This document shows, one piece after another, positions 6,712 through 42,300 of a stretch of DNA of 64,000 nucleotides (the stretch's first letter is position 1; the number at the start of each line of letters is the position of its first letter). The stretch lies in the IMG/VR virus record IMGVR_UViG_3300034071_001628; one strand, written 5' to 3'. Position numbers and translations under genes: made by a program. The DNA is from an uncultured virus (IMG/VR IMGVR_UViG_3300034071_001628) (lineage: Duplodnaviria > Heunggongvirae > Uroviricota > Caudoviricetes). A model generated the notes under the pieces. That model was not told the DNA's origin. It searched no databases and saw only the letters and a list, made by a program, of their open reading frames with translations.

Positions 6712-6918
6712 ATGACTCTCGCAAAAACTGGAACCGAAGTTCTTACAAAAGAAGAATGGGACGAACTTGTTGCACTAAAAGATGCAATTACCTATGCTCC
6801 GCAAACAGTTTCTGCAGAAAAGATGGAAAAATTCACCGAACTTATGGTTCGTTCGCTTGAAGGAAAATGTGACCCTCCTGCTCCTAAGAATTGGAGAGGT
6901 TCTACTTTAAGTGAATGA
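6712..6918 (+). CDS. hypothetical phage protein
   Basis: 68-aa ORF. Confidence 0.65.
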   Translation: MTLAKTGTEVLTKEEWDELVALKDAITYAPQTVSAEKMEKFTELMVRSLEGKCDPPAPKNWRGSTLSE

Positions 6919-6949
6919 TAAAATAAATATATCATCACGCTACAAAACT

Positions 6950-7162
6950 ATGGATAACATCGACCAACACATTCAAAAGGATGTGGATCTTTTGAATGAC
7001 CCAACAATTTCTCCGCAGTCCAGAAGACACACAGAAGAAGAATTAGAAGCACTTAAAGTTTATAAAGAACATCATCCAGAAGACTCACACGATCCTACAG
7101 CATTGGAACTCTATTGCGAACTACATCCTGATGCATTGGAATGTAGAGTTTATGATGATTGA
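6950..7162 (+). CDS. cp12: CP12 Calvin-cycle inhibitor (cyanophage type)
   Basis: C-terminal LELYCELHPDALECRVYDD; upstream ATAAATA late-promoter-like box at 6923-6929. Confidence 0.93.
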   Translation: MDNIDQHIQKDVDLLNDPTISPQSRRHTEEELEALKVYKEHHPEDSHDPTALELYCELHPDALECRVYDD

Positions 7163-7263: not shown

Positions 7264-8187
7264 ATGAAGAACTATGTTCCTTTAGTGCAGCTTGCACATA
7301 AATTCAAATCGAAAGCAAAAAAGTTTCGTCCTGGTAGTATTAACGAGTTTCTAGTGTATAAAGAGCTAGAAGTCTATAAGTTAATAGTTCCCGAAAGCTA
7401 TCAAAGAGACCTTTCTTGTGGTGATATTAATACATATGGTCAATTCAACAAGTGGTATTTTGTTCCACTAATTGTTGCCGTTCGTCCTGATGGTAGAATC
7501 GTCGTGATTGACGGGCAGCACAAAGCAGTTATGGCACTGTGGAGTGGTTGTATTGATAAAGTTCCTTGTATGGTGCTTGAACACACCAAAAATAGAAGTG
7601 ATGAAGACTGCGAAAAGATTGAAGCAGAAATCTTTCACGCTCAAAATGCAAAACGTAAAAATCCCACTCACATTGACAAAATGAGAGCAGGGTATGTGTT
7701 TGGTCTGCCAGAGGCAATTGTATATAATGACAATCTCAGTGCCTGTGGCGTTTATGTTGATAGTCTTGGTGATGTTGAAGGACATCAATTAAATGGTGAA
7801 TATCAGTGGAGACAAGCAGTAAAGAATTACGAACTTGTAACCGTTATGAGAGCAGTTTCTTATGCAAAAGACTACTTTGATAAAGTTTCAGGCAAACGTG
7901 AAGTTCGTGGTGATATCGTGTATGGACTATCTTGCTTGATTAGATTTCTTGATAATGCAAGTGAAGTCATCAACGGAAGGAGAGAAAAAGTTCTGAATTT
8001 TGTTTGCTTTGAAATGTCTAAGTCCAAACCAAAAGTTTGGTATGAAGGAATCTCTGGACCAAATACTGATGTTTTGATTGCCAGAAGAATCATTAAGAGT
8101 TATAATGCTCTTTCTACAACTGCAAACAGTCAGTGTATCTCTGAAGACATTCTTGAAAAATACGGATTGAAAGACCCTATTAAATGA
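7264..8187 (+). CDS. ParB-N/DGQHR-like domain protein
   Basis: PESYQRDL...PLIVAVRPDG...VIDGQHK...EAEIF motifs. Confidence 0.7.
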   Translation: MKNYVPLVQLAHKFKSKAKKFRPGSINEFLVYKELEVYKLIVPESYQRDLSCGDINTYGQFNKWYFVPLIVAVRPDGRIVVIDGQHKAVMALWSGCIDKVPCMVLEHTKNRSDEDCEKIEAEIFHAQNAKRKNPTHIDKMRAGYVFGLPEAIVYNDNLSACGVYVDSLGDVEGHQLNGEYQWRQAVKNYELVTVMRAVSYAKDYFDKVSGKREVRGDIVYGLSCLIRFLDNASEVINGRREKVLNFVCFEMSKSKPKVWYEGISGPNTDVLIARRIIKSYNALSTTANSQCISEDILEKYGLKDPIK

Positions 8188-21497: not shown

Positions 21498-21686
21498 ATG
21501 AAGACGTTCTTTCAGTTCATGGAACAGATTCTCACAACACCACAGGCAAAGGTTGATGCTGCAAAAGCCAAGGAAAGTGGAATCATAACACGTCAGCACA
21601 ATCGCTATGCGAATCTACAACGTCTTCATACGACTATGCATTTGCAGCAGACGGCGAATCAAGAGAAAAGAGATAAAGGACTCTGA
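21498..21686 (+). CDS. small late protein (MKTFFQFME N-terminus)
   Basis: ATAAATA at 21471 and GAGGA RBS; MKTF..F..E start typical of T4-like head-internal proteins. Confidence 0.6.
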   Translation: MKTFFQFMEQILTTPQAKVDAAKAKESGIITRQHNRYANLQRLHTTMHLQQTANQEKRDKGL

Positions 21687-22520
21687 TTAACGTACATAGA
21701 ACCAGTAATAACCTTTCCAACTATAACGCCCTGGATTCTTCAGACTCTTGAGAATTCCGTTTTTATCGGTGCCTTCAAAAAAATGAACAGCAGCATTAAT
21801 ACTTTCACAACGGGGACCAATTATCTCCGTTTTTTTATCGACACCAAACACCGCCTTTTTCTTTTCCTTTTCTTCTAAGATCTGCCAACGATGACCATAG
21901 GCAATGCGGTAATGCCTGGCAGCAGATAGAATGTTTGCACGGTTATTCGGATTGCCTGTCACTTGTGTTGCTGCTTCTCTGGCTGATTCATAATCAGTGC
22001 ATACACCAGTTTCTAAGTTCTTGCATCTTATTTTAAGACCTGTCTTCTTACCATCTCCACGGGTATTCTCATTCCATTGCATTAAGTGTGAGGTATTAAC
22101 TTTTCTTTTTTCTTTTGGTTTTGGTTTAGCAAGTTCTTGTAGTGCTGCGCTTGCGGCGCTTGCGCTTATGCCTTCGGCACTTATGCCTTCGGCAGGCCTG
22201 CCTTCGGCAGGTTTATACTCTTCTATTGCCTTCTTAGCAATCTCTATGGCGCTAATGGCAGGATTGTATTCAGGTTTGTATTGCTCTATCCAATAGTTTG
22301 TTTTCTCATTAAACTCTAATTCATCGCATTCATCTAACTCTCTAATCATAAAGTTATGGACACCATGTTCTCTGAATGCCTTGTGTAAGGGTTCTCGGGA
22401 CATTCTTTTAGCACGGTCTATCTGGTGTGCCCATTCTTTATTCATTGCAAGTGTGGTGTTTCCGACGTATTTTTCACCAGTTTGCTTGTTGATGATGAGA
22501 TAAATGATGCCTCTTGCCAT
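21687..22520 (-). CDS. GIY-YIG (Seg-like) protein with NUMOD1-like C-terminal repeats, apparently degenerate active site
   Basis: GIIY...YVG N-terminus; YESAREAA...AYGHRW and ESINAA...WKGYYW repeats; only clear - strand gene in the window. Confidence 0.8.
   Translation of the reverse strand: MARGIIYLIINKQTGEKYVGNTTLAMNKEWAHQIDRAKRMSREPLHKAFREHGVHNFMIRELDECDELEFNEKTNYWIEQYKPEYNPAISAIEIAKKAIEEYKPAEGRPAEGISAEGISASAASAALQELAKPKPKEKRKVNTSHLMQWNENTRGDGKKTGLKIRCKNLETGVCTDYESAREAATQVTGNPNNRANILSAARHYRIAYGHRWQILEEKEKKKAVFGVDKKTEIIGPRCESINAAVHFFEGTDKNGILKSLKNPGRYSWKGYYWFYVR
22169..22209. repeat. three TGCCTTCGGCA mini-palindromes at 15-bp period inside the GIY-YIG gene
   Basis: Copies at 22169, 22184, 22199. 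Confidence 0.9.
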
Positions 22521-22737
22521 TGTTTATAACACGGTGTGTACTGTGGATTTATAACAGTGTATGTATAATTAATAACACGGTATAATGAATTTGGTGTTGT
22601 GTATTATGGTGAGGTATGGAAGGTTAATATTAAATTAAATATATGTCAGTGATTTGTAACATTCTCAATAAAAATGAATAATTGAGAATCAATTGAGTTA
22701 ATTGATGAGAATAGGTCTAAGTCTTGTGACCTAAGCA

Positions 22738-22766
22738 GGTATAGCATAAGACGCGCAGTTTGTCAA
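22738..22766 (-). promoter_or_regulatory. leftward sigma70 promoter for the GIY-YIG gene
   Basis: Minus strand TTGACA-17 bp-TATACC with TGn. Confidence 0.7.
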
Positions 22767-22815
22767 GCCACGCCCCGCCGAAAATCCCCAGACCCACACA
22801 TAAGGCTCACAGACC

Positions 22816-22844
22816 TTGACATTCTTATAAGGGTATGGTAGAAT
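22816..22844 (+). promoter_or_regulatory. rightward sigma70 promoter
   Basis: TTGACA-17 bp-TAGAAT with TGn. Confidence 0.8.
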
Positions 22845-22995
22845 CTAGTCGAGAAATATAAGCATATCTTAACATTTCTCGACGAGAGTGCATATATACT
22901 AGCATGAATCTCGACGAGACGGTGCATCATAAGGCTTGCAATCTCGTCGAGTTTTATGCTACAATTCATAAGCGTTCAACAAATCTCGACGAGCT

Positions 22996-23148
22996 ATGTA
23001 CGACGACTACGATCTCGACTATACATTCAGCAACGATTACGGACAAGATCTCGACGAGTATTATGCACAGGATGCACTAGATCTCGACGAGGATTATGCA
23101 CGAGATGGGCAAGATTACGAATCGCTTGCATATCGTCATTATGCATGA
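22996..23148 (+). CDS. Asp/Tyr-rich 50-aa peptide (MYDDYDLDY...)
   Basis: Read by hand; follows TTGCAA-18-TACAAT. Confidence 0.55.
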   Translation: MYDDYDLDYTFSNDYGQDLDEYYAQDALDLDEDYARDGQDYESLAYRHYA

Positions 23149-23180
23149 TATAATCTAGTACACATACACATCTAGACCTC

Positions 23181-23333
23181 ATGTTAGCACAGAAGCGTAT
23201 CGTACAGGTTACACTAGATATCATGTGTTATGATGATCTGGACCTGGATAACATCGATTGGCGGGAGTTATTGCAACTCGAACCTAACGAAGATGTTCAT
23301 TGTAGGGTAAAAGAATTCGACCCGTTCGAGTAA
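23181..23333 (+). CDS. small acidic protein (50 aa, MLAQKRIVQV...)
   Basis: Read by hand; TATAAT upstream. Confidence 0.6.
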   Translation: MLAQKRIVQVTLDIMCYDDLDLDNIDWRELLQLEPNEDVHCRVKEFDPFE

Positions 23334-23393
23334 TGTGACAGTTTGAGAACTGGCACAAGACCCCTTGATATCTGCCACCAGGTGGGATATTCT
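23334..23393 (+). promoter_or_regulatory. dyad-type early promoter
   Basis: TGTGACAGTTTGAGAACTGGCACA, TTGATA-17-TATTCT. Confidence 0.8.
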
Positions 23394-23417
23394 ACCTTCG
23401 TCGTCGCAATTAATCCA

Positions 23418-23564
23418 ATGTGTGGTCCAGTTTTTGATTATACTTTCGAAGATTTTCTGAATGATGCTTCCCAGGAAGAATGGGATGCTTGGGAACAGAA
23501 AGCGGCTGAACTTGAGCTGCCATTGGATTACTATCTCCAAGAGTTCGTTGCATGTGACAGTTGA
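23418..23564 (+). CDS. small acidic protein ending KAAEL..DYYLQEF
   Basis: Start after the promoter; motif shared with 16847-17047. Confidence 0.65.
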   Translation: MCGPVFDYTFEDFLNDASQEEWDAWEQKAAELELPLDYYLQEFVACDS

Positions 23565-23649
23565 GGTAGTGGCACACTGATTCCCCACTGGGTCCTCTGG
23601 CCACTGGGTCCTCTGGTGGGGTAATATTCATTTGTCGCTGAGAAATCCA

Positions 23650-23859
23650 ATGGTTTTCGCCATCTCCAAACTCAACAATTGCACTTACACTTTGGATGCA
23701 AACAATCAGCGGGTTCTGATGTATGCTAACCTGCTGCCTGATGGTTCTTATGAGACTGCACTTTCTGCCTATGATTGGGTAGAGTGGGACCGTCTGGATG
23801 GTGATATCTTAGAGGAAGCAGACCGCATTCACAAACTGCTGCTGGCGGAGGTGAAGTGA
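23650..23859 (+). CDS. hypothetical phage protein
   Basis: ORF MVFAISKL... after the dyad at 23553. Confidence 0.65.
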   Translation: MVFAISKLNNCTYTLDANNQRVLMYANLLPDGSYETALSAYDWVEWDRLDGDILEEADRIHKLLLAEVK

Positions 23860-24053
23860 TGGTGGAATTCATTCGTTACGTAAAGTCCTTCTATGGTCCT
23901 GGTGGCATTTATGATATGGGTGCCACTGATGATGATATCATTGAGGCAACGTTTAAATACATTCATTCAGGTGCTGATTTCTGTGGTGATAGTTTCGACC
24001 GTGAAAGTGTGCGGGATATTATGATTGATGAGATGGGGCTTGTGCCAGTCTGA
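23856..24053 (+). CDS. hypothetical phage protein
   Basis: YVKSFYGPGGIYDMGAT...GDSFDRE. Confidence 0.7.
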   Translation: MMVEFIRYVKSFYGPGGIYDMGATDDDIIEATFKYIHSGADFCGDSFDRESVRDIMIDEMGLVPV

Positions 24054-24124
24054 TAAGTGGCACACACCCCCTTGCGTTCCTGACCAATCCGATCTACATT
24101 ACATTCGTTCCTGAGACACCGACC

Positions 24125-24598
24125 ATGCTGACTGGTTCTTCCCTGCTGAACAAAGTGAATGAAATGCAGGCACAAAACCCGCCTGCTAAGATGTCTGAAA
24201 TCGTTCGTGCCTGTGGGTATGAGCGTGATGGCAAACTCAAATACACTGAATTCTACACTGAGTTGCTGACTGTCAAGGGTATCCTGAACAATGATACTCT
24301 GGAGGATGAGATCTCCGAAGAGTATCAGGAACTGTATCAGACTCTGTGTAGTTCTTATGGTAAGGGTGCTGTGAATGCATTCCTGGAACTCTATGATGAG
24401 GCGGATCTTCAGTCTTTCGAAGATGCCTATCAGGGTCCTTATGATTCTGAGGCAGCATTTGCCGAAGAATTTACCACTGACATCTATGGGTTTGATGCAC
24501 CTTCGTTCGTGGTAGTTGATTGGGATGCTACCTGGAACTGTAATCTTCGTTATGATTTTGATTTCGAAGATGGGTTCGTGTTCAATAAGAACTGGTAG
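24125..24598 (+). CDS. cyanobacterial AbrB-like N-domain fused to ArdA-like acidic C-domain
   Basis: MLTGSSLLNKV...ACGY...FYTELL..KG; FEDAYQGPYDSEAAFAEEF...VDWDATW...DGFVF. Confidence 0.7.
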   Translation: MLTGSSLLNKVNEMQAQNPPAKMSEIVRACGYERDGKLKYTEFYTELLTVKGILNNDTLEDEISEEYQELYQTLCSSYGKGAVNAFLELYDEADLQSFEDAYQGPYDSEAAFAEEFTTDIYGFDAPSFVVVDWDATWNCNLRYDFDFEDGFVFNKNW

Positions 24599-24599
24599 A

Positions 24600-24900
24600 A
24601 TCTCGTCGAGACGTGCGTGTGTGGTCTCGACTAGATCGCACACGCATTCATTATATCTCGTCGAGACGCACACATCATACATCATCTAGATACACACATA
24701 CACATCTAGATCTCATTCTCAATAACTAGTTTCTTATTGAGAATCGCGGCTGGTGAGTTCTAGATACCCACGCGGCACACATAGCCCGCCTTATGTGCAA
24801 GAATATGTGCTTCACCCCACTCACCCCTTCCCACACCATCTAAATGTGCTTTATTATAATTCTCAATAAGACCTTTCTTATTGAGAATGATATCTAGAAA
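24600..24900. repeat. repeat-rich non-coding locus B
   Basis: TCTCGTCGAGA at 24601 and about 24656, variant about 24625; 30-bp inverted repeats at 24715-24744 and 24859-24888; CATCTAGA repeats. Confidence 0.85.
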
Positions 24901-25067
24901 TATGAATTCTTATAGATACCTTTGGTATCGATGTCCGTAGGGTATAAGTACTTTAAAGACCCAGAGGGCAGATATCAAGAGCAATTGTGCCAGTTCGTGA
25001 AGTGGCACACAGTTTTACCATAACCCCACCACGTGGGTTATTATACATTCGTTCCTGAGATTCAACC

Positions 25068-25226
25068 GTGACTGAAGTTAAAGTTCGGGTCGAAACTTAC
25101 GATGGTTGCGTTACCTTCTGGTATGAGAAGTCCAGAGTAAAGAACCCCACCGAAGTTGTCTGCAATCGTGTCACAAACCAGTTGATGGGTCTTAACATCA
25201 AAGAGGTGAGTGTGACAGTTGAGTAA
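25068..25226 (+). CDS. hypothetical protein (52 aa, GTG start)
   Basis: Between the dyads at 24986 and 25211. Confidence 0.6.
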   Translation: MTEVKVRVETYDGCVTFWYEKSRVKNPTEVVCNRVTNQLMGLNIKEVSVTVE

Positions 25227-25294
25227 GTGTCACAAGGGGGGTTGCAATGCCCCCCAGACCCTGATACATTACATTCGTCCCTGAGAGACACGCC

Positions 25295-25420
25295 ATGTTT
25301 GATGAACTCTGGTCTGAGATTCAAGATGCTCCTGGTGAGATCTTTGACCTTGACATTCCTGAACTCAAAGATGAAAAGTTCGATGTCAATGAGTATCTGA
25401 ACTCTAACTACGATTACTGA
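25295..25420 (+). CDS. small acidic protein (41 aa, MFDELWSEIQD...)
   Basis: Read by hand after the dyad promoter. Confidence 0.6.
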   Translation: MFDELWSEIQDAPGEIFDLDIPELKDEKFDVNEYLNSNYDY

Positions 25421-25617
25421 TGCAGTTCCAAATCCTCTACATTGAGTTTGATACTGATGACGATGATGAGATGACTGCTTATGACAAAGACCTTCTAAAT
25501 GCAGAATACATTGGTCAAATCTGGGAGGCAGATGATGAAGATGATTTAGTTGAAGAGATCACTTGTGCATCTGGTTGGTGCATCAAATCCATTGATTATC
25601 GTCACGTTCTGAACTGA
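25420..25617 (+). CDS. small acidic protein
   Basis: WEADDEDDLVEEIT..SGWCIKSIDY. Confidence 0.7.
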   Translation: MQFQILYIEFDTDDDDEMTAYDKDLLNAEYIGQIWEADDEDDLVEEITCASGWCIKSIDYRHVLN

Positions 25618-25621
25618 AACC

Positions 25622-25825
25622 ATGACTGACACTTTCGATCGTGAAGCACTGGTTGAAGCATACATCGACCGTTTGCTTGATAACATGAGCACCAAAGATT
25701 TGCTGCAGATTGTTGGTGACCAGATGGAAGAAAATCTCACCAGTTATACTGATGAGGAACTGATTTCAGAGGTTGAGTCTTACTATCCCGACCTGCTGGA
25801 TCCAGACCTCCTGGGTGACAGTTGA
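25622..25825 (+). CDS. small acidic protein
   Basis: 67-aa ORF, D/E-rich. Confidence 0.7.
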   Translation: MTDTFDREALVEAYIDRLLDNMSTKDLLQIVGDQMEENLTSYTDEELISEVESYYPDLLDPDLLGDS

Positions 25826-25894
25826 ACAAGTGGCACAGGGGGGGTTGCGGTCCCCCCTGGTTCGTGCCATACTGATTCCATCAACAGAGAACCG

Positions 25895-26794
25895 ATGCAG
25901 AACAAGCACCAAGAGCACCCCGAAGATACCATCCTCACGGGCGACCTGAGCGTCCTGGACTGGTTCGTGACCCCTGGTGCCCTGAGCGTCAAGATCGACG
26001 GTGCCCCTGCCATCGTGTGGGGGATTGACCCTGCTTGCGGTGAGTTCTTTGTAGGAACCAAGGCAGTGTTCAACAAAAAGAAGATTCGTATTGCTCACAA
26101 TCATGAGGACATTGATCAACACTACGAAGGCAACGTAGCAGACATTCTTCACGCTTGCTTCGATTATCTGCCGCGTTTCGAAACCATCTATCAGGGTGAT
26201 TTCATTGGGTTCGGTGGTGATACCGAATACAATCCTAACACCATCACGTATAAGTTCGGTGAGGTAGTTTCCCAGAAAATTATCATCGCCCCGCACACTT
26301 GCTATTATGCTGAGAGCGATCTTCGTGACGCCCAGGCATTCCCTGACCGTAGCATCTGGACTGATACCGAAACGGTGAAGTTCGTGAAACCGAATGCATA
26401 CATCCTGCACAATCAGGAGTCGTTCGCTGATGTTGAAGAGGTGTGCAAGTTCGCCCGTCAGATGGCACAAACTGCCACCTTTGTGAGTGAGAAGGAAGCG
26501 GCAAAGATCAAACAACAGATCAATGCCTGCATTCGTGCTGGTGAAGAGGTGAATCCTGAGGACTTTGATTGTGATGCTAACCTGCTGCGTCTGTGGGCAT
26601 TGGTGAAGTCTATCAAAGATGACTGCCTGTTCCTCTGCCGCAATGATGGTCCTGCTGCTTATCTGTACGGTAACAGAATCGACGCTGAGGGTTACGTTCT
26701 GGTGAATCAGTTTGGTATGTTCAAACTGGTGAATCGTGAGGTCTTTTCTAACGCTAACTTCAACAGCGGTCGCTTCCAGTGTGCCAATCGTTGA
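25895..26794 (+). CDS. ligase/nucleotidyltransferase-fold protein (DUF6267-like)
   Basis: KIDGAP (motif I-like), YQGDF, EGYVL, FKLVNR. Confidence 0.65.
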   Translation: MQNKHQEHPEDTILTGDLSVLDWFVTPGALSVKIDGAPAIVWGIDPACGEFFVGTKAVFNKKKIRIAHNHEDIDQHYEGNVADILHACFDYLPRFETIYQGDFIGFGGDTEYNPNTITYKFGEVVSQKIIIAPHTCYYAESDLRDAQAFPDRSIWTDTETVKFVKPNAYILHNQESFADVEEVCKFARQMAQTATFVSEKEAAKIKQQINACIRAGEEVNPEDFDCDANLLRLWALVKSIKDDCLFLCRNDGPAAYLYGNRIDAEGYVLVNQFGMFKLVNREVFSNANFNSGRFQCANR

Positions 26795-26860
26795 AGTGGC
26801 ACAGACCCCCTTGTGGGGTGCCCCTGGTGCCCTATACTAATCTCATCAGCAACGCACCCG

Positions 26861-27445
26861 ATGCTCAACACCCTGCAAGTCGCTGCCCAACTGAAGGTAA
26901 CTAACTTCGCTGCGTTCGCCAAACCTGGGAAGAACAAAGGATCCCGTGGGCAACTGATTGAAACTGCCCTGGGCATTCCTAACAGTTCCAACCTGAAAGA
27001 TCTGGTGGATGGAGAACTGAAGACCTTCACGGTTGGTGAGTCTATCGCTGTCACCCAACTGAAGCATTGCCTCTCTGAGATTCTGGAGGATAGTGTTAGT
27101 TTCGCTGACAGCAAAGTCGGTGAGAAACTCTCTCAAACCATCTACGTTGGTTTCACCCGCTCCAACGATTATGTGGGCACTGAGGTTCTGAACCCTGAAA
27201 CTCACCCCGAACACTATCAGGAACTGGCGGAGGATTACAACCACATTTGTGATACCATTCGTGCTAAGTTCAATGCTGGTGAGCAACTGAGCACCATCAC
27301 TGGTCCTAACGGACTGCTGCAAATTCGCACCAAAGCATCTAAAACTAACGGCGCCTATGTTCCTCTCACCTTTGCAGGTTGCACCCTGAAAGATAAAGGA
27401 ATGGCATTCTACCTGTGTGGCAAGTTCGGCAAAGAGGTGCTGTGA
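26861..27445 (+). CDS. MutH/Sau3AI-family endonuclease
   Basis: NKG..GQLIE..LG...D...ELKT, LLQIRTKA, AFYL. Confidence 0.8.
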   Translation: MLNTLQVAAQLKVTNFAAFAKPGKNKGSRGQLIETALGIPNSSNLKDLVDGELKTFTVGESIAVTQLKHCLSEILEDSVSFADSKVGEKLSQTIYVGFTRSNDYVGTEVLNPETHPEHYQELAEDYNHICDTIRAKFNAGEQLSTITGPNGLLQIRTKASKTNGAYVPLTFAGCTLKDKGMAFYLCGKFGKEVL

Positions 27446-27602
27446 CAGTTCAGAATGTGGCACACACCCCATAGACCTGCCCCCTCTGCCGTGCCATACT
27501 ATGTTCAACAAGGGGAGGAACGGCGGGGGCAACCCCACAGACCCCTTGACCCCGTAGGCGGGAGGTCACGGACCCGCCACCCCAAAGTCTTTCAACTGAC
27601 CC

Positions 27603-27746
27603 ATGGCACTGACCCGCTACGAAGTCCGCTACCAGGTCCCCTACAACCACTGTGAGTGGCGGTCGCAATGGTTCCCCACCCTGGCAGAGGCGGAACGTAT
27701 GGTAGAATTCTACCGTTCCTGTGGTTCCCCTGCTCACATCGCATGA
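27603..27746 (+). CDS. hypothetical protein (47 aa, MALTRYEVRYQ...)
   Basis: Read by hand after the structured leader. Confidence 0.6.
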   Translation: MALTRYEVRYQVPYNHCEWRSQWFPTLAEAERMVEFYRSCGSPAHIA

Positions 27747-27910
27747 TCCGCTCCCTGACCCGTTCCCGTTCCCCTGAGTTCCACCGTGCTACCATGCTTC
27801 GCCTGACCGTTGCCGCTCTGCTGCTCTGGATACTATGGGAACCGATTCGCCCCGTCCGCCATGTGACAGCTCAGGCACTGTACACTGCAGGCGACCTGAT
27901 CGCCCGCTGA
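27743..27910 (+). CDS. small membrane protein
   Basis: ATGA coupling; LTVAALLLWILW segment. Confidence 0.55.
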   Translation: MIRSLTRSRSPEFHRATMLRLTVAALLLWILWEPIRPVRHVTAQALYTAGDLIAR

Positions 27911-27943
27911 CCCGCTACAATACTCTCAGTTCAAAGGAACCCC

Positions 27944-28102
27944 ATGACCGAACTGCTTGCCATTCTCATCCCTGGAGCCCTGGTGATCGGTTTGCCCTTT
28001 GCAATCGCCAAACTTCTTAAGATCCGCCTGTTCACCAAAGATGACGGATACACAGCAGGATGGGTTGATGGGTTCATTCTGGGGGAGGATGAGGACACCT
28101 GA
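27944..28102 (+). CDS. small membrane protein (52 aa)
   Basis: Own promoter; hydrophobic N-terminus. Confidence 0.6.
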   Translation: MTELLAILIPGALVIGLPFAIAKLLKIRLFTKDDGYTAGWVDGFILGEDEDT

Positions 28103-28171
28103 GGCACTGTCCACTCCCTGCCCCAAAGGGCACCGCTGACCCCTTACAATACTCTCAACCGCAAGGCACCC

Positions 28172-28387
28172 ATGAGCAAGCGTTACCCCTGGATTGAGGA
28201 CCTCAGCACCCCGCAGATGGTGGCTCTGGCAGGTATCCTGATCGTTGGCGTCGCTGGCGTCGTTGCCCTGAAAGCGTGGCTCCTGGTGCTGGTGCTGGGG
28301 TGGTTTGGAATCACCGCCCTGGGCTTTTGGAAGGCGGTTGTGGCAGTTGTCCTACTGGACCTGCTGCTAGCCGCTGCCCGCCGCTGA
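28172..28387 (+). CDS. hydrophobic membrane protein
   Basis: Own promoter; two to three hydrophobic segments. Confidence 0.7.
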   Translation: MSKRYPWIEDLSTPQMVALAGILIVGVAGVVALKAWLLVLVLGWFGITALGFWKAVVAVVLLDLLLAAARR

Positions 28388-28420
28388 CCTGCTACAATAC
28401 TCTCAGTTCGAAGGAACCCC

Positions 28421-28660
28421 ATGATCGTTCAACAGATCGGCAGCAACCAGACTGAGGTTCAACTGGCAGACGGGACCTGCATCCTGTTCTCCTACGTGAC
28501 TCCCGTTGCCGCCCTGGTGCCTGGCAAGGGTTGGATCCGCACCGCCCAGCAGTGGAGCGCCACCACCAGCAAGCACATCAACGCATGGTTGCGGAAGAAC
28601 TGCGGGGGCACCGTCCAGACTGTGCCACAATGGGATCTGGACCAACTGGTGGCATTCTGA
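28421..28660 (+). CDS. conserved hypothetical phage protein
   Basis: LFSY.TPVAA...WSATTSKHINAWL. Confidence 0.75.
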   Translation: MIVQQIGSNQTEVQLADGTCILFSYVTPVAALVPGKGWIRTAQQWSATTSKHINAWLRKNCGGTVQTVPQWDLDQLVAF

Positions 28661-28702
28661 GGGGTGCCACCCCCTATAATAGGATCAACCGCAACGGACC
28701 CT

Positions 28703-28891
28703 ATGGAGATCACCATCAGCCAGGAGACCTACGCCGTGATCCACCGCCTGATGAGCATTGGCATGGATCAGGTCCTGGACGACCCCCAGACTGGTCCTGA
28801 GACGATGGGCCGCGTCCTGGATCACGTTACCCTGTTCAGTGCCTGGAACCGTGTGACACTTGAGGAACTGGAACAGCAGGCAGGATTCTGA
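28703..28891 (+). CDS. hypothetical protein
   Basis: Start after promoter -10 at 28675. Confidence 0.65.
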   Translation: MEITISQETYAVIHRLMSIGMDQVLDDPQTGPETMGRVLDHVTLFSAWNRVTLEELEQQAGF

Positions 28892-28931
28892 CCCCCTGAC
28901 CCCCTACAATACTCTCAGTTCAGACAACCCC

Positions 28932-29108
28932 ATGACCTACGCCCAGATCACCGCCTCCGAACTCTCCGCCTCTGAGGCACGGGTCGCCATCTTTGACCTG
29001 GCAGACGACTTCTCCTGGGAGACCGTCGCCCGTGAGATGATCTCCCGCATGTCAGGCGATGAGGCGCGGGAGTTTGTGGAGGACTTCATCTCCCTCTATG
29101 CCGATTGA
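28932..29108 (+). CDS. small acidic protein
   Basis: Start after promoter -10 at 28905. Confidence 0.65.
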   Translation: MTYAQITASELSASEARVAIFDLADDFSWETVAREMISRMSGDEAREFVEDFISLYAD

Positions 29109-29181
29109 GGCACTGGCACACGGGGGGCACCAACCCCCCACCTCCATCCCCTACAATACTCTCAGTTCAAACGACCCGCCC

Positions 29182-29364
29182 ATGAAAGTCTATGCTGTGA
29201 TCGGTGGTTGGGATTATGAAGGCACCGACTTCGATTCCCTGCGCCTGTTCGATTGCCGCTCCACCGCTGAGGATTATGAACTGGAGCTGCAGCGGGGTCT
29301 CTATGATTACTCCCGCCTGGAAGTGCGGGAGGTCTGCCTGGAATCCGCCCTCTGTGCCGCCTGA
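29182..29364 (+). CDS. small acidic protein
   Basis: MKVYAVIGGWDYEG...; -10 at 29152. Confidence 0.65.
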   Translation: MKVYAVIGGWDYEGTDFDSLRLFDCRSTAEDYELELQRGLYDYSRLEVREVCLESALCAA

Positions 29365-29433
29365 GGCACTGGCACAATGTCCTGAGCACCGACCCTAAAC
29401 TGCTCTACAATATTCTCAGTTCAAACGAACCCC

Positions 29434-29610
29434 ATGCGCTACAACCCCGCCACCGACCGCGCCCTGAGCATTGATGAGATTGCCGCCCAGTGCCGCGCTG
29501 CCATCCTGAAAGCGGATGAGCGCCGCTACGTTGATCAGGTTGCCGATCGGATCTACGATGAGATTCTGACCACTGCCCGCTGGGAGGATGACCTGCTGAT
29601 CGCTGCCTGA
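29434..29610 (+). CDS. hypothetical protein (58 aa, MRYNPATDRAL...)
   Basis: Read by hand; -10 at 29406. Confidence 0.6.
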   Translation: MRYNPATDRALSIDEIAAQCRAAILKADERRYVDQVADRIYDEILTTARWEDDLLIAA

Positions 29611-29673
29611 TACAATGGGAGCGGGTGCGCCCTGAAAGACACCCACACCAAACCACACTGATTCAAACGACCC

Positions 29674-29817
29674 ATGACCCTTGACCTTGCCCTCTCCCTG
29701 CTCCGCCAGGGTCGCAACGGTTCCCAGATTCTGAGCATCCTGGACGGACTGGCAGACGGCCAACGCATCGCCCAGGAGGGTGACGCCGAACCGACTGCCG
29801 AACCCATCCAATTCTGA
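29674..29817 (+). CDS. hypothetical protein (47 aa, MTLDLALSLLRQG...)
   Basis: Read by hand; same CAAACGACCCATG leader as neighbours. Confidence 0.6.
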   Translation: MTLDLALSLLRQGRNGSQILSILDGLADGQRIAQEGDAEPTAEPIQF

Positions 29818-29885
29818 ATCTGACCACTGCCCCCCACGGTTCGCCGCTGGGGGTCTTATACTATGGGGACACAAGCAAACGACCC

Positions 29886-30053
29886 ATGACCCGCTACGAC
29901 GTGATCTGCCCCTCCGCTCCCTGGGAGAACACCACCACCGATGAGGACCGCGCCTGGGACCTCTGCCTCTCCCTGTCTGAGGAATTCGGTTACGCCCAGG
30001 TCCGCCACAATGAGACGGGCATCATCATCGGAGACTACACCAACGGGCAGTGA
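29886..30053 (+). CDS. hypothetical protein (55 aa, MTRYDVICPSAPWE...)
   Basis: Read by hand; TATACT at 29857. Confidence 0.6.
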   Translation: MTRYDVICPSAPWENTTTDEDRAWDLCLSLSEEFGYAQVRHNETGIIIGDYTNGQ

Positions 30054-30093
30054 GCCCCCGACCTGCTACAATACTCTCAAAGCAACCGACCCG

Positions 30094-30300
30094 ATGCGCT
30101 ACCCCATCAACTGCAACGATTCCACCAGCGTCTGGAGCCTGAGCGCCAACCCCATCACGGGCAGCGTTCGCGTCCGCTGGTTCAACAGCCCCACGACCTG
30201 CTACCGCTACGTGGCATCGCGCCGTGAGATTCTGTCGCTCCTGTGGAACAGCAAGGGCAGCAAGGGTCAATGGATCAACTGGCACTGCCTGCCCGCCTGA
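30094..30300 (+). CDS. KTSC-like domain protein
   Basis: ST.V..L.......V.V.W.....Y.Y......L......SKG.WIN pattern. Confidence 0.5.
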   Translation: MRYPINCNDSTSVWSLSANPITGSVRVRWFNSPTTCYRYVASRREILSLLWNSKGSKGQWINWHCLPA

Positions 30301-30344
30301 TGGCCGCGGCGACCCTGTAGAATACTCTCAACCGCAACGGACCC

Positions 30345-30692
30345 ATGCTGCTCACCTCAGGACAGAAGCAACGCCCCCGCCTCGCCCAGCAGGTCTATCG
30401 CTTCATGCTGGATCAGGAACCGCTCCTGGGCGCTGCTACCGTCACCGTCCATCATCGCCGCCTGAACGCTGAGGGTGTGGTGGGGTGGCAGCAGCAGGAG
30501 GATGCTCATGAGTTCCTGATTGATGTTGAGCGCGACCTGCCCCATCTGGAGTATGTCACCACCCTGATCCATGAGTTGATTCACTGCCGCCAATCCCTGG
30601 AGGGCAACCACGACGACGACGCCCGCGAATCCGAAGCGTACCGCCTGGAGCAGGTCTACGCCGACCGCTACTGTGCCTGGTGTGCCGTCTGA
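30345..30692 (+). CDS. HExxH zincin-like protein
   Basis: TTLIHELIHCRQ...RESEAYRLE. Confidence 0.7.
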   Translation: MLLTSGQKQRPRLAQQVYRFMLDQEPLLGAATVTVHHRRLNAEGVVGWQQQEDAHEFLIDVERDLPHLEYVTTLIHELIHCRQSLEGNHDDDARESEAYRLEQVYADRYCAWCAV

Positions 30693-30731
30693 CCCCGTGC
30701 TACAATTCTCTCAGTTCAACCAACCGACCCG

Positions 30732-30920
30732 ATGAACGCCACATTCTCCGACATCCTCTGGAACTGCACCGACCCCAGCAACGGGACCATCCCCTGGAGC
30801 ACCGCCTGCCAGGCAGCAAAGGAGCACGGTCTGTGGGATGACTTCCGCACCGACTATGGGGTGACCGCCCGCTTCGGTCCTGTCGATACGGGTGAGTTCC
30901 TGGTGTGGTTGGGGTATTGA
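30732..30920 (+). CDS. hypothetical protein ending WLGY
   Basis: Own promoter (TACAAT 30701). Confidence 0.65.
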   Translation: MNATFSDILWNCTDPSNGTIPWSTACQAAKEHGLWDDFRTDYGVTARFGPVDTGEFLVWLGY

Positions 30921-30981
30921 CCCCTACCCCGTTCGTGTGCCACGGTACGTGCTACACTATCAGCAGTTCAACCGACACCCC

Positions 30982-31173
30982 ATGACCATCTTCCCGCTCG
31001 CCATGTGCTCTGACCTGGAGACCCGCCAAATCAAATGGATCTCCCGCGCTGACCAGTTGAAGAACGGTTCCCGCCCCTCCTCCTACATTCACTGGGGACT
31101 GCCCGCCACCACCATCGCCGCCCAGTACGCTGAGGCACACGCTGATGAGGGGCGGGGGGTGCAGTGGCGGTGA
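30982..31173 (+). CDS. hypothetical protein
   Basis: Start after TACACT at 30953. Confidence 0.6.
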   Translation: MTIFPLAMCSDLETRQIKWISRADQLKNGSRPSSYIHWGLPATTIAAQYAEAHADEGRGVQWR

Positions 31174-36375: not shown

Positions 36376-39300
36376 ATGATTCAAACTGGTATCGAATCAA
36401 AGGTAAAGGCATATCAAATTATTGAAAATCAGTTACCTGCATTCATATTAGATGAAAGCCCAAAGGCATCTGAATTTTTAAAACAATATTATATTTCTCA
36501 AGAATATCCAAGTGGTCCATCGGATATTTCTGAGAATTTTAATTCTTACATTAATCTTGACAACTTAACTCCAGAAGTTATTGTTGGATTCACTTCAATA
36601 ACTTCTTCAATCACCTCTACTAGCTCAACAATCAATGTTTTGAGTACAAAGGGATTTCCCCAATATTATGGTTTGCTAAAGATTGATGATGAAATTATTA
36701 CATATACTGGAATTACAACAAACTCTTTCACTGGATGTGTTAGAGGATTTAGTGGAATTACTAGTTATAGAGATTCAAATAATCCAGAAGAATTAGTTTT
36801 TTCAGAAACAACCGCATCTTCACATACGCAATATTCTTCTGTACAAAATCTAAGCTCTCTATTTTTAAAAGAATTTTATAATAAAATCAAATATTCTATT
36901 GCTCCAGGTTTGGAAAATGTTGATTTTGTTTCCGATTTAAATGTTGGCAATTTTCTAAAAGAAGCAAGATCATTCTATCAGTCAAAAGGTACTGAAGAAT
37001 CTTTTAAAATCCTCTATAAAGTTTTGTATGGAGTTACTCCAAAAGTAATTGACCTAGAGCAATTTCTTTTTAAACCATCTGATTCAGAGTACATTAGAAG
37101 AGTTATTATTTTAACCGAAGCAATTTCTGGAAATCCAAATAATTTAGTTGGGCAAACAATTTATAGTTCTTTAGATACTAAAACAAGTGCAGCTGTATCT
37201 GAAGTAGAAATTTTAACCAGAAAAAATAAAGTATATTATAAACTAGGTTTATTCATTGGGTATAGCGATCAAGACTTAATTGAAGGTGACCTTACAGTAA
37301 CAGCAAATACTAAAGTAATTGGTGATGTTTCAATAGGATCTTCAATTATTACTGTAGATTCGACAATTGGATTTGAGAAATCTGGGACAGCAATATCTGG
37401 AAATAATACTATTGTATATACAGATAAAACTGTAAATCAACTTTTAAATTGTTCAGGTATATCTGAAAATATTTCGAACAAAGATTCGATAAGATCAAAT
37501 CAGACAATTTTTGGATTTGAAAATGGAAATTTAGATAAGAAAGTAGAATTAAAAGTATGTTCCATAATTTCAAATTTACAGATGATTGAAGATAAAGCTT
37601 TAAATCTTGAAAATGAAAAAATTTATATCAAACACCTAGGTGACTTAATAAAAAATCCAAGCAACCCCAACGACAGAACTTATAAGCAAATTTTTGCAAA
37701 TTCTTGGGTATATAATACTAGCTGTACTTTTGAAGTTGATTCTTTTAATCTATCATCTAAAGTTTTTACTTTAAAATCTGATATAGATTCTTCTAGTTTA
37801 AAGGTTAATGATAGAGTTGATATTATTAATGCTGTTACTGGTTCTGTTAGAATTTCCAATGCAAAAGTAACAGGTATTGATGGGGGAACAAAAGAAGTTA
37901 CCTTAAGTTATGTTGGATATACCACTTCGACTTCGATACCACATCTATTAAGAAGAATCATTAAGAAAACATCTAGTGAATTAGTACCGTTGAAGTATGG
38001 TAATGATACTTTATTTGCAGATGTTCAGAATGTGTATTCCGATGATGCAAATGAATTTATGTATGTGGCATCGAATTCTTTGCCATCATACACTTTCAGA
38101 CTTGATGCAACACCATCCAAACCATCAATAAGAGTTGGTACAGCTTCGACTTTTATTGGCGCAGCAACTACTCAAAGCGGTGCAATTCAAAAAGAACTAT
38201 CAGATGATGATTATTCTATTATTTCATTCCCAACTTCTATACCATTTTTGACAGGAGATGCTGTAATCTATAGTCCAGAAACAACACCAATATCTGGACT
38301 TGCTACAGGGAAATATTTTGTAAAAGTATTAACTGATCCAAAACAAATAAAATTATATGCATCAAATTCATTTATTCAAATAGATGATTATATTACATTC
38401 AATCCTCTTTCTCCTGGAGTTGGTGGAAAGCATAGTTTTGTAGTGGAATCTAAATTTAATAAAAATATTGAACCACAAAAATTATTAAGGAAATTTCCAC
38501 TTAGAGAAGTCATCAAAGATAATGATGGAGTAGAGAATGATAAAGAGTTTATTGGAATGTTGGTCAATGGTGTCGAAATAAAAAATTATAAATCTCAAGA
38601 TAAGATTTATTATGGACCATTAAAATCTATAAGCATTTTAAACTCTGGAATTGATTATGATGTAGTTAATCCACCACAAATAATTGTATCTGGACCACCA
38701 ACTGGATCTGGTACAACTTCACTTGTTCAACCAGTTATAAGTGGTTCTGTTAAAGAAGTACTAGTAGATCCGCAAAATATTGAACTTGAAAAAGTTATTT
38801 CATTAAGTATTCAAGGTGGTAATGGTAGTGGATGTTTATTAGAACCTATTGTAGAAAAAACTTTTAGAGAAGTTGATTTTGATGCGAGACTTCTGAGTAA
38901 TTTTGGTGGCGTTGGCGAAACTGCAGAAACAATAACATTTCTATCGAATCACGAATTTTCAAATGGTGAAGCTGTAGTATATAAATCTAACGGAAATTCT
39001 CCAGTTAGTATCGGAACATATCTTGGTTCAAATGCTGATCAAAATAGATTCCTGCTGGAAAATGCAACTTATTTTGTAAGGGTTTTAAATAATAAAACTG
39101 TTAGATTGTATCCATCTTTTAATGATTACATAACTGGAATTAATACAGTTGGATTCACAACAGCGTCAAATACAGGAATCCATAAGTTTAGAACTTATCT
39201 CGGTAAAAAGACTTTAAAGTCAATTAAAGTCTTAGATTCTGGGTCTGGATATCAAAATAGAAAACTATATGTTAAACCAGTAGGAATTTCTACAATAGAG

Positions 39301-42300
39301 CATACAATTAGTTTTACTGATCATAATTTTAAAGAGGGTGATATTGTTGAATATCAATATACTGGCACCCCAATTTCTGGTCTATCAACATCAAACAGAT
39401 ACTATATTATAAAGAAAGATAATGATTCCTTTAGATTGGCAGATGCTGGAATAGGTGCAACAATATCAACAAATTATACTAGAAATATTTTTACTAAATT
39501 TTCAAATACTGGAAGTGGATATCATATTTTTAAATATCCAGATGTCAGTGTCACAGTTAATGTTGCATATGGATCGACGAATGTTGGTGTAATTACATGC
39601 ACACCCATTGTTCGTGGTAGTATTGTTGATTTGTACCTATATGAATCTGGTAGTGGATATGGTAGTACAGTTTTAAACTTTGAAAGAAAACCCAACATAT
39701 CAATTAAAAATGGTAAAGATGCTACTCTTTATCCAGTTGTTCTTGCAGGAAAAATTGTCAGAGTAGATATAAGAAATAAGGGAACTGAGTATTATTCAAC
39801 CCCATCATTAACGGTAGTTGGTGAAGGTAGTGGAGCAGTCTTACGCCCAATAATTAATAATGGTCAAATTGTTAATGTTGTTGTAATTAATTCTGGAATA
39901 GGATATACACAATCAACAACATCTATCAAGGTAGTTTCTGCTGGAAGAAATGTAAAACTAGAAACAAAGGTTAGAGATTTAACTTTAAATGATGCAAAGA
40001 GATATGGATCTGAATATCTACATCCAAAATTAAACACTGGGTTAGAATATTGCAATATTTCCTACTTAAATGAACTTGCAACAAATGAATTCAATGATAA
40101 CGGGTCTTCTCATTCACCAATTATTGGGTGGGCATATGATGGAAATCCAATATATGGACCATATGGATATAGAAATCCAATTAATTCAGCACAAGGTATA
40201 GTCATATTAAAACCAGGATATGTTGAAGATACTTCAGTTATCGTTGATAGACCATCTGGATTTGTGCCAGGATTCTTTGTTGAAGACTATAAATTTGATA
40301 ATTCTGGAGACTTAGATATACACAATGGAAGATTTTGCAAAACTCCAGACTTTCCAAATGGAACATATGCATATTTTGCTGGAATAACAACGGATGGATT
40401 ATATCAACCAAAATTCCCATATTTTATTGGCAATAGATTTAGGTCTCTATATGCTGAAAATAATTTAGATCAAGACTTTGATTTTTCAAAATCAGATCTA
40501 GTTAGAAATACTTATCCATATAAAATTTCAGATGAATACTCTCAAAATGATTTTATTATTGAAGATGACTCACAATTTAATCAAGAGTCGATAATTACAT
40601 CTATTGAAAAGGGTCAAATAAAAACAGTTGAGGTTACAAAAAACGGCATTGACTATAAATTAAATGATGCATTAGTATTTGATAATTCGAATTCAAATGC
40701 TGAAGGTGCATCAGCTGTAGTTTCTTCTCTAAAGGGTAAGACAATAACATCTATTGCATCATCAACTATAGAATATTCTAATGCGGTTCTAACCTGGGAA
40801 GATAAAAATAAAGCAAGAGTTTATATTACACCATTCCATGTATTAAATAATCGTGATATTGTATCAATATCTGGTCTATCAACATTTGTTCCAAAAATAG
40901 CTGGAAATAGACAGGTATCAATATCAACAGATAGATTTACCGTATTTAAAGATATTCCATCAAATCCAGTTACTCAATCTGGTTTAGTAACAGACATTTA
41001 TATTTCTACTATACCAAATACCCTTTCTATAGGTTCAAGTATAGGAATAGGTACTGAAATAATGTCAGTACTAAATATTTTTTCGGAAAGAAAATTATTA
41101 AGAGTTAAAAGGGGTGTAAGTGGGACTTCTCACACAACTAGCACTTTGGGATTTGTATATCCCAACTTTATTGAAATTGGATTACCATTACAATATTTTG
41201 ATTCGGATTTAAATTCAAAGGTATATTTCAATCCAAATCAGTCTGTTGGTGTTGGTACAACATCTGGAGTTGGAGTAGCAGTTACTTATTCTCTAGGAGA
41301 ATTAAATTATCAAATAGATATTCCTACACAAAGCATTTATTTACCAGATCACCCATTTAAAACAAATCAAAGACTTATCATTAGGAAGAAGAGTGGAGAT
41401 CCTATTTCTGTTTCAAATACAGAAACTTCATCACCATTTAATTTGCTAAACTCTTCATTTGAATATGTCTATGCTATTAACAAATCAAAAGACTACATTG
41501 GTATAGTAACTCAAGTTGGTCTAACGACAAATACTAAGGGTTTGTTCTTTAGAACAAATGGTTCTAATAATTTTGAATATTCATTTGAACCAACATATAA
41601 TCAAATAACATGCACCATTCAAAAAAATGATGCCGTTGTATCAGTATCCACAGCACATGGACTTATTCCAGGTGATTCAGTTACTTTAAATGTTGTTCCT
41701 AACCAATCTGTAGGTATTGGAACTTCTACTGCGGTTAAATTAAAATTTGCGTCAGATATTCAAAAGTTATTGGTTAATCCAGTAGGTTTCAATTCATATC
41801 GTGTTAATCCAGCATTAGATACAATAAACATAACATCACATTCATATAAAACTGGTGATAAAGTTTATTATTCAGCATCTGATTTAGTATCTTCTGGGCT
41901 ATCGACGGGAGTTTATTATGTTTATAGAGTAGATAAAGACAATATCAAATTAACAATAACTTATGAAGACTCCGTATCCAACCCACCAGTAATAGTTTCA
42001 ATTGCATCTACTGGTGGTTCTAATCAAGCATTGTCCTTAGTTAATCCAAAATTACAACCAATCAAAGGAAATAATTTAGTATTTGATCTAAGCGATTCTT
42101 CATTGAGTGGTTACAATTTTAATCTATACTCAGATAAAGACTTTAATAACAAATTTGTATCAATAGCAAATACTTCAATCATATCAACAATTGGTGTTGG
42201 AACAGTTGGGGTGACTAGCACTGCTAAACTTACTTTAAATTATTCAGAGTTACTTCCAAATTCTCTATTTTATAATATTGAAAAATCTGGATATATTTCT

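Follow-up and report, generated by a model that had tools for sequence, protein, structure and literature searches.

A conserved palindrome array on tandem promoters in an uncultured T4-like cyanophage: a candidate operator platform for early genes

The stretch of DNA considered here (the window, 64,000 nt) belongs to an uncultured virus of the Caudoviricetes (IMG/VR record IMGVR_UViG_3300034071_001628) and differs at 21 of 64,000 positions from the corresponding part of the 205,009-bp parent virus record (G000:C1:26414-90413). A tryptophan halogenase, a 2OG-Fe(II) oxygenase, gp25/gp6/gp7-like baseplate genes and giant structural open reading frames (ORFs) make up the gene set of a T4-like cyanomyovirus, and the gp6 homologue shares 64% identity with that of Synechococcus phage S-SRM01. 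The element in question is a module of about 0.75 kb, in which short palindromes lie over host-type promoters and two small genes, ORF1 and ORF2. Its core is termed locus A, and a smaller related cluster downstream is termed locus B. A first-pass annotation, made from the letters of the window, had described both as repeat loci sharing three motif types and had proposed a replication origin or nucleoprotein site. The coordinates of all features are collected in Table 1.

The first of these motifs, the palindrome TCTCG(A/T)CGAG, is present as described, with six exact sites in locus A and two in locus B, plus TCTAG variants. Within the window, TCTCGWCGAG gives 12 matches (four sites counted on both strands) against 0.05 expected, and none of 100 shuffles reaches 12. 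A genome-wide motif count, which the annotation had named as a check, finds the motif types confined to loci A and B. All eight exact 10-mers of the genome lie in these two loci, and under a broader site definition (the 11-mer TCTCGNCGAGA with at most one mismatch) 10 of the 14 sites in the 205,009 bp fall inside 22844-24666, the four outside being at chance level (3.0 in shuffles). The spacings between the locus A sites are 32, 33, 42, 65 and 33.

Locus A is matched by BLASTN in two cultured phages, S-SRM01 (76% identity) and S-T4 (70%), and the complete region 22500-25000 is present in 14 lake or freshwater metagenome runs; a megablast search of 22300-25200 against phage records gave zero matches. 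All related loci were collected with a 20-nt ORF1 pattern, which is matched by at least 120 IMG/VR stretches, so that every count for relatives given below is conditional on ORF1 and holds among the matches listed. Conservation in related phages, which had also been put forward as a check, is widespread: the module is kept in at least 120 viral contigs as well as in S-SRM01 and S-T4. Its parts have a constant order, from the AT-rich tract through the hairpin/box element, the leftward promoter and the palindromes to ORF1 and ORF2, and position and inner order are kept in 40 of 40 loci. The genes upstream of the module are syntenic within one clade, and downstream lie shuffled small gene families. 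Together with the constancy of ORF1 and ORF2, this places the module at the head of the hyperplastic early genes, some 11 kb ahead of gp25/gp6.

Between five and seven sites are found in 69 of 86 unique loci (range 2-9). Their spacing peaks at 21-24, 31-33, 42 and 62-66 bp, so that the sites are roughly phased near whole helical turns, with the coding frame contributing. The palindrome core is symmetric with a centre that is A in 59% and T in 40%, which is the shape expected of a dimer site. For the non-coding copies, cores are kept and the intervening spacers vary, this conservation being partly imposed by the site definition of at most one mismatch. The palindrome is restricted to the module region in one complete genome (G001), in G003 and in S-T4; another genome (G002) has the module and a single stray palindrome, and S-SRM01 has three clusters inside 5.5 kb. 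The S-T4 record contains the module twice, 171,569 bp apart, which we read as terminal redundancy of the record rather than as a second locus. Marine model phages contain CTCGWCGAG at most twice (Syn9 0, S-PM2 0, P-SSM2 1, S-SKS1 2), which indicates that the exact site is lineage-restricted. A two-site palindrome pattern searched against prokaryote genomes matched at least 121 stretches from unrelated, mostly high-GC taxa, with no cyanobacterium among the matches listed; the scan is therefore uninformative as to a host regulon.

The sites stand in a fixed register on the promoters. Four sigma70-type promoters lie within 420 bp, all with TG at the extended -10, and the divergent promoters of the first-pass annotation are found among them as Pleft and P1. 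Pleft takes the form TTGACA-N17-TAnnnT in 55 of 59 unique loci; the TG is there in almost all of them, even the spacer is conserved, and S-SRM01 and S-T4 have the promoter too. The -10 element of P1 runs directly into the first palindrome (22844). A TTGACA-type promoter occupies the P1 place in 27 of 62 rows (our own count), and the fused form TGnTAnAAT-CTmGWC, a P1-type -10 with its site, is found in 16 of 62 loci. The palindrome at 22942 sits within the P2 spacer and that at 22984 ends 1 nt before the ATG of ORF1. Among the relatives, an extended -10 promoter with a site upstream precedes ORF1 in 46 of 62 loci, the centre of the site lying 13-14 nt before the hexamer in 41 of these 46, and a site is centred 5-15 nt (mostly 7-11 nt) before the ATG in 57 of 62. 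A symmetric site at a fixed distance on a promoter core, which is one feature of operator arrays, is thus present. At the P3 place, TTGCAT-17-TATAAT with TG is seen in most of the rows, and TGnTAnAAT-CTmG stands 3' of ORF1 in 45 of 62 loci. RNA-library contigs of relatives (two runs, from different studies) cover ORF1 (22936-23194), a weak indication of transcription as DNA may occur in such libraries. The contigs leave 22000-22935 and 24691-25041 uncovered, from which nothing follows for those parts.

For ORF1, 79 protein variants can be distinguished; their indels come in multiples of three, and the codon-position entropies are 0.49, 0.40 and 0.76. The variants, the indels and the third positions being the most variable indicate that it is a real coding sequence. 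Two palindromes lie in frame (23049 and 23082), where GAT CTC GAC GAG reads DLDE, and a half-like copy is found at 23013; the two units form a 33-bp tandem duplication with 85% identity (repeat family D9). In the 49 xLDE motif copies that were not fixed by the search pattern, CTC encodes Leu every time (49 of 49, against 43% in the rest of ORF1), GAC likewise always encodes Asp (49 of 49), and GAG encodes Glu in 47 copies. The synonymous positions of the motif are in effect frozen, which points to selection of the palindromes as DNA. ORF1 has no family in PHROG or Pfam, and its AF2 model is of low confidence (pLDDT 58).

ORF2 accompanies ORF1 in all 40 unique loci that have 2-kb flanks, and it has a clear coding signature (entropy 0.81, 0.49 and 1.28). 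Its AF2 model reaches a pLDDT of 82.5, yet DSSP assigns one short helix only. A Foldseek search with the model against the PDB gave 0 matches, a wide VIA-align search had a best Z of 2.3, a profile search against PDB sequences gave one chance match (E 1.1), and the protein atlas gave unnamed clusters only. A ribbon-helix-helix or AbrB-like fold, considered for ORF2, is unsupported by any fold match.

Table 1 Coordinates of the features in and around the module (positions in the window)
Feature	Position	Strand	Description
GIY-YIG/HNH-type homing-endonuclease-like ORF	21687..22520	-	277 amino acids (aa); divergent from the module, downstream of Pleft
AT-rich leader	22521..22660		three direct repeats TTTATAACACGGT at 22523, 22548, 22569 (family D13)
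Left hairpin IR-L	22661..22689		ATTCTCAAT, 11 nt, ATTGAGAAT
Pleft, sigma70-type promoter	22738..22766	-	TTGACA, 17 nt ending in TGc, TATACC
P1 promoter	22816..22844	+	TTGACA-17-TGgTAGAAT; 11/12 consensus positions plus TG
Five non-coding palindromes	22844 (TCTAG variant), 22877, 22909, 22942, 22984		span 22844..22994
Exact TCTCGWCGAG, locus A	22877, 22909, 22942, 22984, 23049, 23082		
P2 promoter	22936..22965	+	TTGCAA-18-TGcTACAAT; palindrome between -35 and -10
ORF1	22996..23148	+	50 aa, pI 4.05, 16 Asp/Glu, 10 Tyr
P3 promoter	23126..23154	+	TTGCAT-17-TGaTATAAT; encoded in the last ORF1 codons (LAYRHYA, stop)
Motif (ii), copy 1	23160..23176	+	CA-rich leader between P3 and the ORF2 start
ORF2	23181..23333	+	50 aa, pI 4.24, phrog_12516
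TGTG(A/C)CAG...GTGGCACA units	23333-23376, 23552-23587, 24040-24066, 24985-25020; also 23627, 24100, 25044		PeSL-like
Locus B start	24593..24666	+	P1 -10 element and site copy TGGTAGAATCTCGTCGAGA, then sites 24601, 24625, 24656
Exact TCTCGWCGAG, locus B	24601, 24656		
TCTAG variants	22844 (locus A), 24625 (locus B)		
Motif (ii), copy 2	24694..24710	+	joined directly to hairpin 2
Hairpin 2	24715..24744		ATTCTCAATAA, 8 nt, TTATTGAGAAT; families D10, I1
Hairpin 3	24859..24888		directly after TATAAT 24853-24858 of a promoter-like site

The two other motif types of the first-pass annotation are likewise where it placed them. Motif (ii), ACACATACACATCTAGA, occurs in exactly two copies (0.02 expected), in a shared stretch of 23 nt with 96% identity (family D16). 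Motif (iii), the inverted repeat ATTCTCAAT(AA)...ATTGAGAAT, forms the three hairpins of Table 1, which are the only paired copies, the half-sites elsewhere in the genome being unpaired. None of the three is followed by a U-run, and a promoter-like match (TTCCCA-18-TATTAT, 24828-24857) precedes hairpin 3. Among the relatives, an inverted repeat is found on the left side of the module in 24 of 59 unique loci, and a second ATTCTCAAT hairpin directly 3' of ORF2 (+270 to +340 from the anchor) in 22 of 59. The arm sequence is kept, with arms at times extended to 12-16 nt, and loop length ranges between 4 and 13 nt, which implies that the stem and its sequence both matter. The arm ATTCTCAATAA is the 11-nt core of the footprint-derived consensus of Anabaena FurA (AAATAAATTCTCAATAAAT) and of the box in the furA promoter, and the variant arm ATTCTCAATTA is the core of the second furA box (PMC4005646). 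Compared with the FurA box, the 11-nt core is identical but the flanks are unmatched, and two cores here face apart across the loop (PMC4005646). The host here is a picocyanobacterium, and we regard this likeness as a lead only.

Locus B opens with TGGTAGAATCTCGTCGAGA, a 19-nt stretch with 95% identity to 22836-22854 (family D6) that overlaps the stop codon of an ArdA-like ORF (24125-24598, matching phrog_36653 at 2.6e-13), and relatives also carry sites directly 3' of the stop codon of the ArdA-like gene. A second, B-like cluster is found in 17 of the 53 loci with sufficient flank, often right after a stop codon and with CA-rich spacers resembling motif (ii). In the relatives L019 and L029, the second cluster (roughly +1250 to +1600 relative to the anchor) lies within promoters, with TTGACA followed directly by a site, ahead of tRNA-like sequences. 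Several relatives (L001 at about 6850-7020, also L022, L040 and L059) carry after the second cluster a conserved, structured-looking element that is absent from the window (gaggaaagggtttgcctc ... aaagttaccc ... gtgggtg ..., then a GC stem and a T-run) and that may be a small RNA. The small genes are preceded by a second repeat family, consisting of the dyad TGTG(A/C)CAG...GTGGCACA, a sigma70-like promoter and the shared leader TACATTCGTTCCTGAGA.

To the left of the module, the divergent endonuclease-like ORF matches phrog_3404 at 5e-32, and also phrog_314 and phrog_5123, with no match in Pfam. Homologues that match it over the full length (37-67% identity) occupy this position in 22 of the 47 unique loci, which looks like a long association with the module rather than a recent insertion. 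The AT-rich stretch at 22520-22700 is mostly the leader of this ORF in the phage studied here. The first-pass annotation had singled it out as a possible unwinding element; in duplex stability it does rank in the lowest 0.08-0.25% of genome windows, but the genome has over 15 further places of equal or lower stability. Just before the start of the GIY-YIG ORF, a late-promoter-like TATAAATC on the minus strand accompanies the three TTTATAACACGGT repeats. At the level of sequence, Pleft points toward the AT tract. In 20 of the 47 loci, the 600 nt downstream of it contain no start of a minus-strand ORF with at least 100 aa.

The hairpin position is taken in 9 of 59 relatives by one to four perfect TTTTCCACA/TGTGGAAAA boxes beside the AT tract, TTTTCCACA being the cyanobacterial DnaA box at oriC (PMC4674748). 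Inverted pairs of such boxes flank the module of L052 (at -388/-377 and +300/+311 from the ORF1 pattern match), clusters of five and two boxes bracket that of L301, and in both contigs DnaA-box clusters occur only at the module. The genome of the window has no DnaA-box cluster at the locus and just six scattered single boxes. DnaA-box pairs are found in at least 119 stretches of viral contigs, of which 6 of the 119 sampled have at least two palindromes nearby. Between the leftward promoter and the hairpin or boxes, relatives (L301, also L013, L039 and L063) contain variable numbers, 0 to about 25, of tandem units of the 11-nt GGTTTATAAGA type, reaching about 300 bp in L301 (1850-2120) between Pleft and the DnaA boxes; there are almost none in the window.

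Other parts of the window are mentioned for context. A GC-rich island at 26000-31000 (up to 0.61 GC, against 0.38 for the genome) holds many small ORFs of unknown PHROG families and has a negative GC skew, and two giant ORFs, 36376-48885 (4169 aa) and 50494-57582 (2362 aa), lie in the baseplate/tail region, at about 30% GC. The Rfam search of 21500-26000 (E up to 1) gave one chance lncRNA match only, and the tRNA scan found none.

Of all observations on the palindromes, the most specific is their fixed register on promoter cores and the ribosome site, which points to transcription control and hence to an operator platform. We tentatively favor the reading of locus A as a multi-site operator platform for a putative dimeric DNA-binding protein controlling the first early genes, and would put it somewhat short of an even chance. 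Locus A would then be the control region of the first unit in the early, hyperplastic gene block, and TCTCGWCGAGA the binding site of a dimeric, sequence-specific protein. Seven or eight roughly helix-phased copies would span the P1 start site, the spacer between the P2 -35 and -10, the ribosome site and, within ORF1, its first 100 bp. Since the sites cover these elements, their occupancy would close the two tandem host-type promoters, leading to shut-off of, or feedback on, an immediate-early unit made up of ORF1 and ORF2. Locus B, a smaller cluster that lies 1.75 kb downstream and is built on a copy of the P1 -10 element, could act alone or cooperate with A via looping, and the ATTCTCAAT hairpins would bracket the early unit. 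The sites, their uniqueness, their promoter register, their conservation as DNA and the conserved architecture are observed; protein binding, repression and cooperation between the clusters are inferred. The "nucleoprotein site" of the first-pass annotation is to this extent borne out, as the sites are unique, conserved at the DNA level in coding and non-coding copies, roughly phased and gathered in two clusters.

Several observations weigh against this assignment. B-type clusters in relatives often lie after stop codons and lack a clear promoter, and the DLDE protein repeat together with the 33-bp tandem duplication accounts in part for the copies in ORF1. An origin would also look like this: one array, unique in the genome, accompanied by a second cluster and an AT tract and, among relatives, by DnaA boxes. 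No binder of the palindrome was identified among the linked genes, ORF1 and ORF2 being acidic and matching no DNA-binding family or fold. The ParB-like protein of the window (7264-8187) was rejected as the binder, being present in none of five other module-bearing genomes. A 233-aa protein (5102-5803) has a MazE/AbrB-like domain just below the Pfam cut-off, and is present in just three of those five genomes. The binder may also be a host protein.

A replication origin at the locus, as first proposed, would make the palindromes iterons and have Pleft fire through the hairpin/box element into the AT tract, priming or opening the DNA; we consider this possible but rather doubtful. Such an origin would resemble oriF and oriG of T4 (a promoter plus an unwinding element) or iteron replicons, and an operator role may coexist with it; as the same sites do both jobs in iteron replicons, the operator and origin readings are not exclusive. 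In keeping with an origin, the array is unique in the genome, roughly phased and joined in some loci by the second cluster, and the conserved Pleft is aimed at the hairpin/box element and the AT tract, in 20 of the 47 loci with no sizeable minus-strand ORF starting soon after it. The DnaA boxes of nine relatives, bracketing both flanks in L052 and L301, and the 11-nt tandem repeats between Pleft and the boxes can be read in the same way, and oriE of T4 likewise combines repeats at even spacing with an early promoter and a pair of tiny ORFs (PMC3016281). However, the window itself is without a DnaA-box cluster, and no initiator gene (Rep or O-like) was found, the linked genes being two 50-aa acidic ORFs that give no BLASTP match to RepEA or RepEB of T4 at E up to 100. 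The cumulative GC skew, a check that the annotation had named, rises steadily with no switch at the locus, both raw and detrended. The AT tract is not uniquely unstable and serves here as the leader of the GIY-YIG gene, and DnaA-box pairs are common in viral contigs and seldom near palindromes. The "iterons" of T4 oriE are a 24-nt coding repeat of gene 5 (T4 record NC_000866), and the review regards a link of the oriE repeats to origin activity as not established (PMC3016281). The register of the sites on promoter cores and ribosome site points to transcription control first. It is also conceivable, though unlikely, that the module is primary replication origin and early-gene switch in one. 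On this view the palindromes, as iterons, would close the early promoters and organise the origin at once, host proteins would dock at bracketing elements that can stand in for one another (DnaA boxes in some phages, Fur-box-like ATTCTCAATAA pairs here), and ORF1 would be a tiny gene overprinted on the iteron-promoter repeat.

Other explanations are less likely. Recombination or cassette shuffling, with the A and B motifs acting like PeSL elements and the block between them being excised, duplicated or swapped, is very unlikely, although PeSL elements have been described in T4-type phages (PMC4122927), the region downstream consists of shuffled small gene families, and the order of three shared pieces (D6, D16 and D10/D15) is the same at loci A and B. 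Replacement does occur: in one RNA-library contig of a relative, 491 other letters stand between 23359 and 25231 in place of 23360-25230, with loss of the ArdA-like gene and locus B. But the borders of this swap fall outside the palindromes, in the TGTGnCAG...GTGGCACA family (23333-23376 and 24967-25009), and no A/B joint is seen among the RNA-library contigs, so that excision of the A-B block, suggested in the first-pass annotation, is unsupported. The place and inner order of the module are moreover constant, and recombination alone leaves the promoter register and the frozen synonymous sites unexplained. The palindromes could also be mere relics of a 33-bp coding repeat (DLDE-x-YA), homogenised by gene conversion, perhaps driven by the homing endonuclease, and be without a DNA function of their own. 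Each unit is indeed a site followed by TTATGCA, the ORF1 units are tandem copies (D9, D12), upstream copies are readable as NLDE or NLVE in some relatives, and the GIY-YIG gene adjoins the module in nearly half of the loci. We nevertheless hold this to be highly improbable: the upstream copies lie in differing frames outside any conserved ORF and keep their cores while the spacers vary, B- and C-type clusters occur in other intergenic gaps far from ORF1, and the sites persist in loci without the endonuclease gene. There is hardly any likelihood, finally, that the element works as RNA, with A-centred and T-centred copies pairing in the P1 transcript and alternative hairpins controlling translation or stability. 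A mostly T-centred copy at -55 with A-centred neighbors and a 20-nt pairing at 90% between 22900-22919 and 22942-22961 (family I4) would fit, but a comparison of 58 unique leaders found no conserved RNA structure or covariation (alifold energy -1.3), the start points of P1 and P2 would exclude several copies from their transcripts, and the centre base is mixed at most positions.

The operator platform that we favor can be compared with known systems. Operator arrays are familiar from lambda (OR/OL with CI and Cro), P22 (Arc/Mnt) and R1 (parC with ParR). The locus shares with them several short symmetric sites in or beside the promoter cores of the first genes and a second cluster 1-2.5 kb off, with possible cooperation by looping. 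It differs in that no repressor gene was found, a site enters the coding sequence, there are five to eight copies, and the phage is a lytic one of the T4 type; no description of such an operator-repressor system in lytic T4-type phages was found in the searchable literature. The iteron replicons P1 (oriR-repA-incA), F and pSC101, and lambda with its ori inside gene O, have in common with the module phased sites over a promoter and a small gene, an adjoining AT tract and a second cluster downstream, as well as, in some relatives, host DnaA boxes to one side or to both. Here, however, no Rep-like initiator was found and the window is without DnaA boxes at the locus, and iteron initiators are not known from T4-type phages. 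DnaA, for its part, can also serve as a transcription factor or roadblock. In relation to the DnaA boxes of cyanobacterial oriC, the 9 of 59 relatives carry boxes whereas the window's own locus has none (PMC4674748).

By layout, the nearest analogue in T4 is oriE, where repeats at even intervals come together with an early host-type promoter and the tiny ORFs repEA (50 aa) and repEB (45 aa); oriF and oriG share a promoter firing into an AT-rich element (PMC3016281). The T4 origins also resemble the module in lying upstream of the block of baseplate gene 6 with a GIY-YIG gene nearby, but repEA and repEB are antisense inside gene 5 and their proteins have no sequence similarity to ORF1 and ORF2. 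The TGTGnCAG...GTGGCACA units at 23333, 23552, 24040 and 24985 do fit PeSL cassettes (a stem-loop, a sigma70-type promoter and a hyperplastic region; PMC4122927). The palindrome array, motif (ii) and the ATTCTCAAT hairpins differ from these cassettes in occupying one place in the genome and not standing before every small gene. A search of the literature, limited to main texts, turned up neither this array nor DnaA boxes as described features of cyanophages, and the words "palindrom" and "promoter" are absent from the text of the S-SRM01 paper.

T4-like cyanophages are without the T4 regulators MotA and AsiA, and the sole predicted origin on record for them in the source consulted is that of Syn9 (PMC2984593). 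For both the timing of early genes and the start of replication in these phages, the module offers a compact, widely conserved and testable candidate. The palindrome provides a defined 11-bp bait for a regulator, and with the module present in S-SRM01 and S-T4, both of them cultured relatives, experiments are feasible. The module is a case in which a small gene and promoters share the same bases, and the DnaA boxes of the relatives link a lytic phage to the host initiator DnaA. If the module were indeed origin and switch in one, phage replication and early expression would be coupled to host replication or iron state.

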